Positions 4,258-60,620 of a DNA stretch of 64,000 nucleotides are shown in pieces. The stretch comes from Ostreococcus lucimarinus. Lineage: Eukaryota. Location of the stretch: the NCBI GenBank assembly GCA_000092065.1, contig CP000584.1. The stretch is one strand, 5' to 3'. Position 1 is the first letter of the stretch, and each line of letters begins with the position of its first letter. A model generated the notes under the pieces. It did not search any database, had not been told where the DNA came from, and saw nothing but the letters and a program-made list of their open reading frames with translations. The translations under genes were made by a program, and so were the position numbers.

Positions 4258-4307
4258 GCGCGCGCTGGCTATACTAAAAGCAGCGCGCGCTGGCTATACT
4301 AAAAGCA
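4258..4307. repeat. perfect 25-bp tandem duplication (gcgcgcgctggctatactaaaagca x2)
   Basis: Read directly. Two identical adjacent copies at 4258-4282 and 4283-4307, in the convergent 3' spacer between the SART3-like gene (stop 3990) and PRODH (stop 4326). Confidence 0.85.
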
Positions 4308-5195: not shown

Positions 5196-5631
5196 CACCA
5201 CCGCTCACGCGCGCGCGCGCGCCCTCAAATCGCGCGCACGCGCGCCGCGCTCGACCAAAACGCGTCGTTCGCAAAACGCGTCGTTTCGCAATTCCAACAG
5301 TCGCGCGCGTTCGAGCCCACCGGCGCGCGCGCGTCGCTCTCTCTCTCGCGCGCTCTCGCCGACGCTCGCGCGCGTTCGTTCGCGCGTTCGTTCGTTCGCG
5401 CGCGCGATCCGTTCGCGCCGCGCTCGATCGCCGTCGCGCGTCGGTGTGCCGCCGCGTCCCGCGTCGACGCGTTTTGGCCGCGCGACGGTTCGCGACGCGT
5501 TTTGGTTCGTGAGACCTAAACCGTCACACGGACCGCGCACGATTTTTTCGCGACCGTTCGGCGTCGTCGTCAGTCGGCGACGCCGGCGTCGCGCGCGCGG
5601 CGGGCGACGCGCGCGCGACGACGCGACGCGG

Positions 5632-57704: not shown

Positions 57705-58073
57705 TCACTCCGTCGCGTCCGATCCCGCGCCTTTCCGCTTCAGCCCAAACTTTTCCACCAGCTCGAACGCCTTATTCAGCACCTCCGTCTCCGCCGCGTT
57801 GAGTTCGTGAATCTCATCCACGACCTTATTCATCGCTCGATCGCGCGCGCGAGGGTCCAGCACGTCGTCCTCGTCGCTCGGGAACCCAGCCTCGGCGAAC
57901 TCGAGCATCGCCGCGCTCGGCTCTGCCCCCGCCTCGTTCGCCGCGTCGGCGCCGTCCGCGTCGCTCGCGCGACGCGTGATGGCGACGCGCGCGCGCGCGC
58001 GTTCGACGCGCTTCGTCGCGCGCGCGTGCGGACGCGCGATGGGGGCGAGCGGGGCGAGCGCGCGGGCGAACAT
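57705..58073 (-). CDS. small organelle-targeted protein (122 aa) with ribosomal L7/L12 N-terminal-domain-like helix; function unknown
   Basis: ATG at 58073..58071. Arg/Ala presequence, then MNKVVDEIHELNAAETEVLNKAFELVEKFGL, which resembles the L7/L12 dimerisation helix. No L12 C-terminal domain follows. Confidence 0.3.
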   Translation of the reverse strand: MFARALAPLAPIARPHARATKRVERARARVAITRRASDADGADAANEAGAEPSAAMLEFAEAGFPSDEDDVLDPRARDRAMNKVVDEIHELNAAETEVLNKAFELVEKFGLKRKGAGSDATE

Positions 58074-58189: not shown

Positions 58190-58872
58190 TCATCGCAGGC
58201 ACGATGAGAATCGGTGCTGGCCCACGTACCCGCCCTGCATCGCGCGCCGGACGTTCATCGCGAAATTCTGAGGCGTGCGCGCCAAATCCTCCGCCGCCTC
58301 CTTGTTCAGAGGATCGTCCGGATTCGGCTCGCTGAACAGCAGAGACAACCCGAAGATGACGCTCGAGATCGACAACACCGGTTTCCAATCCTCTCTCAAA
58401 ATGTTCAAGCACACGTTCCCGTCCAAGTCAATGTTCGGGTGATACACCTTGCGCTCGCATCGCACCTTCGGCGGTTCGTGCGGATACATCGTCGGCACCG
58501 CGAACGAAAACTCAAACGTCCCACCGCGATAGTACCCCTCATCGGGTTTAATCGCGATGACAAAGTTCAACAAATCATCCTTCCCATTCGGGAACGCTAT
58601 CGACATCGTCCGCGGAAGCGCGAGCTCCGATATGTCTGCGTTCGTTTCGTTCGCGCGCGCGCGTCAGTCGTCTCGCCGTCGTCCCGCGTCCTCGCGCTTC
58701 CCCCGTTCGCGTCGCCGTCTCGCGCACCTTTCGCCACGCGAACCTCCCCGCTGCTCTGTCTCGACGTCGTGCCTCCGTTCGCCTCGCGTTCGGCCGCCTC
58801 CTTCTCTTGTTTCGCCTGTCGTCGTCGTCGCGCGCGCGTCGCGTCAGTCCTTCGTCGCATCCTTCGTCGCAT
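58190..58872 (-). CDS. UBC12: NEDD8-conjugating enzyme UBC12 (UBE2M/RCE1 type); spliced complement(join(58190..58635,58728..58872))
   Basis: Exon 2 contains track ORF 58190..58606. It is near-identical to UBE2M: [63 protein letters not shown]. The frame stays open upstream, giving [10 protein letters not shown] (cf. DINELNLPKT), back to acceptor CAG ending 58636. Branch GACTGAC at 58669-58663. Exon 1 (track ORF 58597..58872, [48 protein letters not shown]+G) encodes the Lys/Glu-rich UBC12-specific N-terminal extension (cf. [21 protein letters not shown]...LRIQKD) and ends before donor GTGCGC at 58727. 92-nt phase-1 intron. 196 aa. Confidence 0.8.
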
Positions 58873-58883
58873 CCTTCGTCGCG
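58849..58883. repeat. 12-bp tandem repeat (ccttcgtcgcat x2 plus partial third copy) spanning the UBC12 start codon
   Basis: Read directly. On the coding (minus) strand this reads ATGCGACGAAGG ATGCGACGAAGG, duplicating the initiator ATG and giving MRRR-MRRR. A third degenerate copy lies 5' of it. Confidence 0.8.
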
Positions 58884-59060
58884 CGCGTCGCCGCGCGGTC
58901 GTTCGTCGCGCGCGTCGGCGTCGCGGTCGCGCGTCGCGCGTCGTCGTCCTCGCGTCGCGCGCGCACCTTGACGGAGAACAGCTTGATCATCGCGCCCTCG
59001 TCGCGGCGTCGTGTGTCGCGCGCGACGATTCGGCGCGTCGTCGCGGATGGATAGAGCGCG

Positions 59061-60515
59061 ATGCGACGGCGCGACACACGACGACGCGCGATGGCGATGG
59101 CGATGACGCGCGCGATGATGACGACGGCGACGACGGCGACGACGAAAGCGACGGCGCGGGACGCGCGACGCGAGACGCGCGCGCGACGCGCGATCGCGAC
59201 GAGGGCGAGCAACAACGAAAACCGCTACGGCGCGTGCTGGCCGGGACGCGCGGAGGTGCCGGCGAACGTCGCGGCGCTCGGGAACGGAAACGTGAAGAAG
59301 ATATCGCTGCTCGGAAGCACGGGGTCGATCGGGACGCAGACGCTGGACATTTGCGAGGAACATCCGGATAAGTTTGAGGTCGTGGCGCTGAGCGCGGGGC
59401 GAAACGTGACGCTGGTGGCGGAGCAGTGCGCGAAGTTCTCGCCGAAGTTGGTGAGCGTGCAGAACGGAGAGGACGTGGCGAAACTGAGGGATGCGTTGCA
59501 AAAACTCGGATGCGCGATGCCGGAGATTATGTATGGGGAGGATGGGATGGTTGAGGTGGCGAGACACGCCGACTGCGATTCGGTGGTGACGGGCATCGTC
59601 GGATGCGCGGGATTGCCGCCGACGGTGGCGGCGATCGAGGCGGGAAAGAATATTTGCTTGGCGAATAAGGAGACCCTCATCGCCGGTGGCCCCGCGATCG
59701 TGCCGTTGGCGGTGAAGCATGGGGTGAAAATTTTGCCCGCGGATTCCGAGCACAGCGCCTTGTTCCAGTGCATTCAAGGCATGCCGGAGGGCGCGCTGAG
59801 ACGCATCATTCTCACCGCCTCTGGCGGCGCTTTCCGCGATATGGACCTCGCCACCATGCGTGAACTCGCGGTGTCCGATCCCGCGGCGTTGCACAAGAAG
59901 GCGACGACGCACCCGAACTGGGACATGGGCGCGAAGATTACGTGCGACAGCGCGACGCTCATGAACAAGGCGCTCGAAGTCATCGAGGCGCACTACCTCT
60001 ACGGCACCTCTTACGACAACATTGACGTGATCGTGCACCCGCAATCGATCGTGCACTCCATGGTTGAGACCTCGGATAGCTCCGTTTTGGCGCAATTGGG
60101 CTGGCCTGACATGCGTTTGCCTATTCTTTACACCATGTCTTGGCCCAACCGCGTCGAGTGCTCCGAAGTCACGTGGCCGCGACTCGACTTTGTCAAGATG
60201 GGCGACCTCACCTTCCGCGCGCCCGATTTCGAAAAGTACCCGTCTCTCACCATGGGCTACGCCGCCGGTCGCGCCGGTGGCACCATGACGGGCGTTTTCT
60301 CCGCCGCCAACGAGCAAGCGGTCGCCATGTTCTTGGACAAAAAGATGGGCTACTTCGACATTTACAAAGTCATCGAGTTGGCCATGGAGGCGCACAAGAA
60401 CGAGCTCGTGCTCGATCCGTCCCTGGACGACATCGTGCACTACGATTTGTGGGCGCGCGATCACGTCAAGCAAACCGTGGAATCTGGCGTTTTGACCGGC
60501 GCCCTGCCTCGTTAA
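59061..60515 (+). CDS. DXR: 1-deoxy-D-xylulose 5-phosphate reductoisomerase (MEP pathway) with plastid transit peptide
   Basis: ATG at 59061. Conserved DXR blocks: [99 protein letters not shown]. Thr/Ala/Arg-rich presequence of about 75 aa. Confidence 0.9.
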
Positions 60516-60620
60516 ACTACACATTCGATTCGTTTCGTCTCGCGCGCTCGTTCGCCGACGTTGCTAATACTCACTCCAACAACGAGTCACGCGCTTCACT
60601 CGCGCACGCGCGCACGCCTG

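Follow-up and report, generated by a model that had tools for sequence, protein, structure and literature searches.

An apparently duplicated N-terminus in a predicted NEDD8-conjugating enzyme of Ostreococcus lucimarinus reads as an intronic repeat downstream of a missed eight-codon exon

We analyzed a 64-kb window of the O. lucimarinus genome (64,000 nt of contig CP000584.1), which carries a predicted UBC12 gene on its minus strand and a divergently oriented DXR ORF on its plus strand. The features of the UBC12 locus are listed below, with positions counted from the first base of the window.

58967..58990, minus strand: coding part of predicted exon 1, ATG ATC AAG CTG TTC TCC GTC AAG, encoding MIKLFSVK (residues 1-8).
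58990-58988, minus strand: predicted initiator ATG, the first codon of this 24-nt micro-exon.
58816..58966, minus strand: predicted intron 1, 151 nt, phase 0, with donor GTGCGCG at 58966-58960 and acceptor ...GACGACAG, its AG at 58817-58816.
58847..58882, minus strand: 12-bp tandem array with units GCGACGAAGGAT, GCGACGAAGGAT and GCGACGAAGGAC, wholly inside intron 1.
58842..58849, minus strand: exact match to the branch-site octamer, GACTGACG, in intron 1; the acceptor AG follows 24 nt further on.
58728..58815, minus strand: predicted exon 2, 88 nt, encoding the Lys/Glu-rich rest of the N-terminal extension (residues 9-37 and the first base of the Asp38 codon).
58636..58727, minus strand: predicted intron 2, 92 nt, phase 1, with donor GTGCGCG, branch site GACTGACG at 58669-58662 and acceptor GAACGCAG.
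58190..58635, minus strand: predicted exon 3, from the rest of codon 38 to Arg185 and the stop TGA at 58192-58190; it encodes the UBC core.
58606-58190, minus strand: 138-aa ORF, the ATG-initiated part of UBC12 exon 3.
58411-58409, minus strand: codon of the catalytic Cys113 in exon 3, within a segment that aligns with the human active-site segment.
58991..59060, no strand assigned: 70-bp spacer separating the UBC12 ATG (minus strand) from the divergent DXR ORF, whose first ATG is at 59061 (plus strand).

When the three exons (58990-58967, 58815-58728 and 58635-58190) were joined and translated on the minus strand, they gave an uninterrupted, in-frame product of 185 residues. Translation would begin at ATG 58990, with exon 1 contributing its eight codons; intron 1 would be removed through the species-typical donor, the branch-site octamer and the AG 24 nt further downstream. 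Exon 2 would then supply residues 9-37, intron 2 would be removed in the same manner, and exon 3 would complete the protein with the UBC core and Cys113. The first-pass annotation had placed the gene at 58190-58883, an extent that falls short of the first coding exon at 58967-58990. It was right to regard the 138-aa ORF as incomplete, this being only part of the last exon, but the ORF lacks 47 of the 185 residues rather than about 58. Similarly, its assignment of the NEDD8-E2-specific extension to a separate exon holds for the Lys/Glu-rich part on the upstream exon (58815-58728), but the extension as a whole is divided over two exons, one carrying residues 1-8 and the other residues 9-37 with the first base of codon 38. 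There is no ATG on the UBC12 strand from 59200 down to 58991, and the spacer presumably holds a shared promoter together with the 5' UTRs. That the spliced mRNA is the expressed form, that intron 1 is spliced and where transcription starts are all predictions from sequence and comparison.

The identification of the gene as UBC12/UBE2M was borne out by comparison with proteins of known structure. The 185-aa product aligns over its full length with residues 1-183 of human UBE2M (4p5o_I, E 1.7e-66), and the first six residues, MIKLFS, are identical. With this product as the query, UBC12 chains matched best, with E values from 1.7e-66 to 9.4e-64, and yeast Ubc12 gave 3.3e-44; other E2 families were far weaker, at 3.3e-29 for UBE2F and 8.5e-29 or weaker for UBE2D/UBC4. 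The protein is thus closer to UBC12 than to the ubiquitin or SUMO E2s. Residues 34-169 match the Pfam UQ_con domain (E 1.2e-38), with the active-site Cys113 in an HPN...C motif. An extension of about 26 residues that begins Met-Ile-Lys-Leu-Phe ahead of the UBC core is found only with the three-exon model, and a model that starts with MRRR does not have it. Human UBE2M (UBC12; PDB 4P5O, 2NVU and 1Y8X) and the algal protein have in common MIKLFS, a Lys/Glu-rich linker, the UBC core and the active-site segment. The linker itself (residues 9-30 of the algal protein) has diverged and is 2 residues longer than its human counterpart, and charging of the algal enzyme with NEDD8/RUB is predicted. UBE2F, the second metazoan NEDD8 E2, also has an N-terminal extension, but its match to the query (2edi_A, E 3.3e-29) is much weaker than that of UBE2M and covers residues 21-166 only, which places the algal protein clearly with UBE2M. 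Arabidopsis RCE1 and other plant RUB1-conjugating enzymes are also close counterparts: land-plant and streptophyte homologues are 61-69% identical to the query across 97-100% of its length and start MIKLFSVK. RCE1 belongs to a different lineage from the algal UBC12 and is the genetically validated plant NEDD8 E2 (PMC3968751).

The best named database matches were 'ubiquitin-conjugating enzyme E2 M', 'NEDD8-conjugating enzyme Ubc12' and 'RUB1-conjugating enzyme'. The 90% cluster of the 138-aa ORF holds two named 185-aa proteins, XP_001417542.1 from O. lucimarinus CCE9901 and XP_022838801.1 from O. tauri, the latter with the same MIKLFSVK start as the O. lucimarinus protein. Our three-exon product is identical over 185 residues to XP_001417542.1 (= ABO95835.1, UniRef100_A4RW91), as judged from the protein sequence in the cluster listing. 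The correct gene model is therefore already in the public annotation, and the window derives from O. lucimarinus or a strain nearly identical to it. The public entry is named just 'predicted protein / UBC core domain-containing protein' and is not labelled as a NEDD8 E2, and its model may have been built from homology in turn, not from transcripts.

The splice signals of O. lucimarinus are reported to be unusually strict, with GTGCGTG at the 5' splice site and GACTGACG at the branch site (Irimia & Roy, PMC2483917). The donor of intron 1 agrees with this consensus at 6/7 positions, and intron 2 has the same GTGCGCG donor. Both introns contain an exact copy of the branch-site octamer (58849-58842 and 58669-58662), and the distance from octamer to AG is exactly 24 nt in each. 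Across the 64-kb window there are 11 copies of the octamer against 4.4 expected, a count reached in 0/100 shuffles. Thus, 58816-58966 has the donor, the branch site and the AG spacing of intron 2, and its removal restores the reading frame in phase 0. In agreement with this arrangement, transcript-derived homologues of other green algae read contiguously as MIKLFS(V/A)K(D/E)KQ.... The junction 58728/58635 in the earlier model proved correct, because one related locus (L003) has no intron there and reads contiguously ...VSK|DISE.... Nine further exact copies of the octamer lie at 5568, 12780, 13030, 24986, 27619, 40219, 42564, 50249 and 51858; these probably mark other introns and could be used to correct other entries of the ORF track.

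We collected additional loci from several sources. The 138-aa ORF is present on contigs in 1285 blocks of a public assembly collection, from which ten same-species loci (L008-L017) were fetched. A degenerate pattern for the micro-exon and its donor recovered 15 more loci from JGI metagenomes, and three look-ups of closest homologues gave further loci. The micro-exon with a GTGCG donor is present in 27 metagenomic loci besides the window, representing at least nine lineages. It occurs in six distinct DNA versions, in which 5/5 variable sites are third codon positions and none changes an amino acid. All transcript-derived homologues from the green lineage (MMETSP and EukProt), together with the land-plant proteins, start MIKLFS or MINLFS. 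Intron 1 of the window is 55-62% identical to that of three other Ostreococcus lineages, the exons are 79-92% identical, and the length of the intron varies from 94 to 203 nt across lineages. Under a two-intron splice model, each lineage with the simple gene structure splices to a full-length UBC12. L018/L028 and L024 do not fit this model and evidently have more introns, so only exon 1 and its donor were used from these loci. The syntenic O. tauri-like locus (L002) has the same three exons, the phase-0 intron after codon 8, the divergent DXR neighbor and GACTGAC branch sites. Together, these results point to a single-copy gene for a NEDD8/RUB-conjugating enzyme (the UBC12/UBE2M/RCE1 orthologue) with three coding exons and its start at ATG 58990, a reading to which we assign a probability of about 95%.

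The gene structure varied in other respects among the relatives. L003 has intron 1 and lacks intron 2, and the species of L022 is likewise without intron 2. Relatives of the P0007 type have an intronless UBC12, with ORFs that start MIKLFSAKDKQEKE. A phase-0 intron after codon 8 is common to many lineages, including those with long or AT-richer introns (L018 and L024).

The tandem array drew attention because the first-pass annotation had placed the initiator codon inside it. The repeat itself is real and a true product of slippage: TRF reported 58848-58882 with period 12, 2.9 copies, 100% matches and a score of 70. Looser GC-rich tandem repeats are abundant in the window (295 TRF rows), and the rest of intron 1 is also repetitive, with 27/28-nt arrays at 58875-58961. 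Perfect period-12 arrays of about three copies occur only twice in the 64 kb, the UBC12 array being one of the two, and the array is therefore no chance match. The third unit ends in GAC, which forms the first three bases of the branch-site octamer; the array thus expands the sequence that adjoins the branch site on its 5' side. It was also correctly noted that the array has two ATGs (58872-58870 and 58860-58858) at a distance of 12 nt, both of which share the reading frame of exon 2 and would yield MRRRMRRR.... However, the conserved MIKLFSVK start lies 118 nt further upstream, at ATG 58990, and the repeat is inside 58966-58816. Since the repeat is wholly within intron 1, the proposal that slippage had duplicated the critical N-terminus does not hold, nor would there be two MRRR starts between which a DCN1-like partner could discriminate.

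We then compared the array across species and strains. It is confined to O. lucimarinus and absent from every other lineage sampled, and alignment shows it to be an insertion relative to the other Ostreococcus lineages. Intron 1 of the O. tauri-like locus, for example, is 114 nt long and has neither the 12-mer array nor an in-frame ATG. In-frame intronic ATGs are also absent from L021, L025 and L027, and those found in L020/L023 and L022 stand at other positions and encode unrelated peptides. The 13 same-species sequences are distinct haplotypes: SNPs separate them in exon 2 and intron 2, and the DXR-UBC12 spacer has indels of 9 and 15 nt. The anticipated variation in copy number across strains was not seen, as 13/13 of these sequences carry three units despite the indels nearby. 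In one same-species variant (L016), the first unit reads GCGACGAAGCAC and the first ATG is lost. Large differences in upstream length in L011 and L014 were traced to scaffold N-gaps and have no biological meaning. By these sequence comparisons, the array is fixed and species-specific, and its ATGs are conserved neither within nor between species.

We read the array as a replication-slippage expansion next to the 5' side of the intron-1 branch site, one that arose in the O. lucimarinus lineage and is present in all sampled haplotypes; it would be spliced out and contribute nothing to the protein. Stop codons are rare in such GC-rich sequence, which leaves the exon-2 frame open across the 50 full codons of intron 1, and the in-frame ATGs would then be accidental. 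Both ATGs have a purine at -3 and are not intrinsically bad start sites. From its sequence, the array looks like an ordinary, neutral-seeming intronic slippage repeat.

In human UBE2M, Met1, Ile2 and Leu4 occupy the groove of DCN1 (PMC5658359). An N-terminal peptide of about 26 residues docks on the NEDD8 E1 (PMC8028724), and N-terminal acetylation controls the interaction between UBC12 and DCN1 (Scott et al. 2011, cited in PMC3968751). An E2 of this family forms a thioester with NEDD8/RUB and neddylates cullins, and its N-terminal Met, acetylated by NatC, is the residue held by a DCN1-type co-E3. Met1, Ile2 and Leu4 are all intact in the spliced algal product, and an MRRR start would lack all three. 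Start choice had been expected to alter the residues shown to DCN1, but the residues that contact DCN1 are unchanged in the spliced product. By analogy, the algal N-terminus would work as that of human UBE2M does, with N-acetyl-Met1, Ile2 and Leu4 inserted into DCN1 and residues 1-26 placed onto the E1. No DCN1-like gene was detected within the 64-kb window (tblastn best E 1.3, with a probe validated against PDB DCN1), and a literature search on DCN1 or neddylation in Ostreococcus gave nothing relevant.

We considered whether the intronic ATGs could be used alongside the conserved start. A minor transcript from an internal transcription start site in intron 1 might accompany the main MIKLFSVK form and yield an MRRR-initiated UBC12 without the DCN1- and E1-docking residues, possibly a regulatory or dominant-negative isoform. 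The open 50 codons before exon 2 and the purines at -3 are permissive of this and are the only evidence in its favor. If intron 1 were retained, however, scanning ribosomes would start at the MIKLFS ATG 58990 and stop, in a different frame, at TGA 58846-58844 after 48 codons. This TGA is downstream of both MRRR ATGs, so reinitiation could not use them, and only an internal start site could give the MRRR form. Such a site would have to lie within about 95 nt, where nothing suggests one, and neither the ATGs nor the encoded peptide is conserved in other lineages. We therefore regard dual use as very improbable. Equally hard to credit is a non-neutral role for the 12-mer triplication, whether by tuning the efficiency of intron-1 splicing, and hence UBC12 dosage, or by allowing internal initiation of a minor MRRR isoform that is missing the DCN1/E1-docking residues and damps neddylation.

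Least probable of all, and in our view barely tenable, is the earlier model itself, in which transcription or translation starts inside intron 1 and the protein begins at ATG 58872 (MRRRMRRR) or ATG 58860 (MRRR) with an N-terminus duplicated by the repeat: each ATG shares the exon-2 frame and no stop intervenes, and prokaryote-style gene callers have produced such proteins from metagenomic contigs (P0141, MRRRTDATR...; P0001, MRGRMNRR...), but this model discards a perfectly conserved MIKLFSVK block and a consensus donor 118 nt upstream, gives an N-terminus without counterpart in any homologue and without the Met1-Ile2-Leu4 contacts to DCN1 (PMC5658359), relies on ATGs that sister lineages do not conserve and of which L016 has lost the first, overlooks that the repeat directly adjoins a consensus branch site, and conflicts with the curated public models of O. 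lucimarinus and O. tauri, which start MIKLFSVK. Moreover, the metagenomic calls in its favor also read through intron 2, which marks them as gene-caller artefacts. On the sequence evidence, the MRRR-MRRR N-terminus appears to be an artefact of the overlooked eight-codon exon 1, and ATG 58990 is the preferred start.

Comparable misannotations are found among database proteins of related picoalgae, several of them derived from metagenomes. P0040 (214 aa; sources including NCBI and JGI), named 'ubiquitin-conjugating enzyme E2 M', begins MDPTPLRAP...RRPEQ, a stretch encoded by intron 1 of its own locus. At L022:2094-2330, and also in L026 and L032, there is an intact MIKLFSVK micro-exon with a GTGCGCG donor 203 nt upstream of the acceptor. 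P0141, P0001 and P0002 (MCVRIQ-AKQ...) begin at intronic ATGs, and the first two of these read through intron 2. In all, P0001, P0002, P0003, P0005, P0013 and P0141 are gene-caller artefacts similar to P0040. An in-frame TAG interrupts exon 2 in L001 (GCC TAG CGC, L001:2918-2946), at a codon that is GAG in L020 and L023 of the same lineage; the TAG may be a nonsense variant of this one contig or else an error of assembly, and it accounts for the odd protein P0005, which comes from an intronic start.

Other features of the neighborhood were recorded. The same-species equivalents of the UBC12-DXR spacer (window 58991-59060; L008-L031) differ by a 15-nt indel, CCGCGACGCGCGACG, so that the measured stretch has 304 nt where the insert is absent and 319 nt where it is present; the 9-nt variant gives a stretch of 313 nt, and there are SNPs at -6 from the UBC12 ATG (G/A/C). 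The N-terminal region of the DXR ORF (window 59078-59207, plus strand) is transit-peptide-like and consists of overlapping 6-, 9-, 12- and 24-nt tandem repeats. In contigs of the same species, DXR has been called with lengths of 484, 474, 472 or 419 aa. Directly downstream of UBC12, a 122-aa ORF (57705-58073, minus strand) occupies the same syntenic position in 10/10 same-species loci (L008-L017), and L002 has a 158-aa call there; the 122-aa ORF has no Pfam match, and its N-terminus looks organelle-targeting. The long ORFs at 58214-59371 (plus strand, 385 aa) and 58575-60524 (minus strand, 649 aa), antisense to UBC12 and DXR, respectively, were rejected as genes and represent the usual stop-poor antisense frames of a window with 61% GC. 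Elsewhere, at 4258-4307, the window contains a perfect direct repeat of 25 bp x2, GCGCGCGCTGGCTATACTAAAAGCA, with an A/T-rich core that is unusual for this sequence.

The value of this analysis is mainly corrective, as the apparent duplication of the NEDD8 E2 N-terminus comes down to a missed eight-codon first exon in an ordinary gene that was already annotated. In the compact, GC-rich genomes of prasinophytes, stop-poor introns let in-frame intronic ATGs pass as starts. The strict GTGCG and GACTGACG signals, combined with conserved micro-exons like the one for MIKLFSVK, are the reliable guide to the true start.
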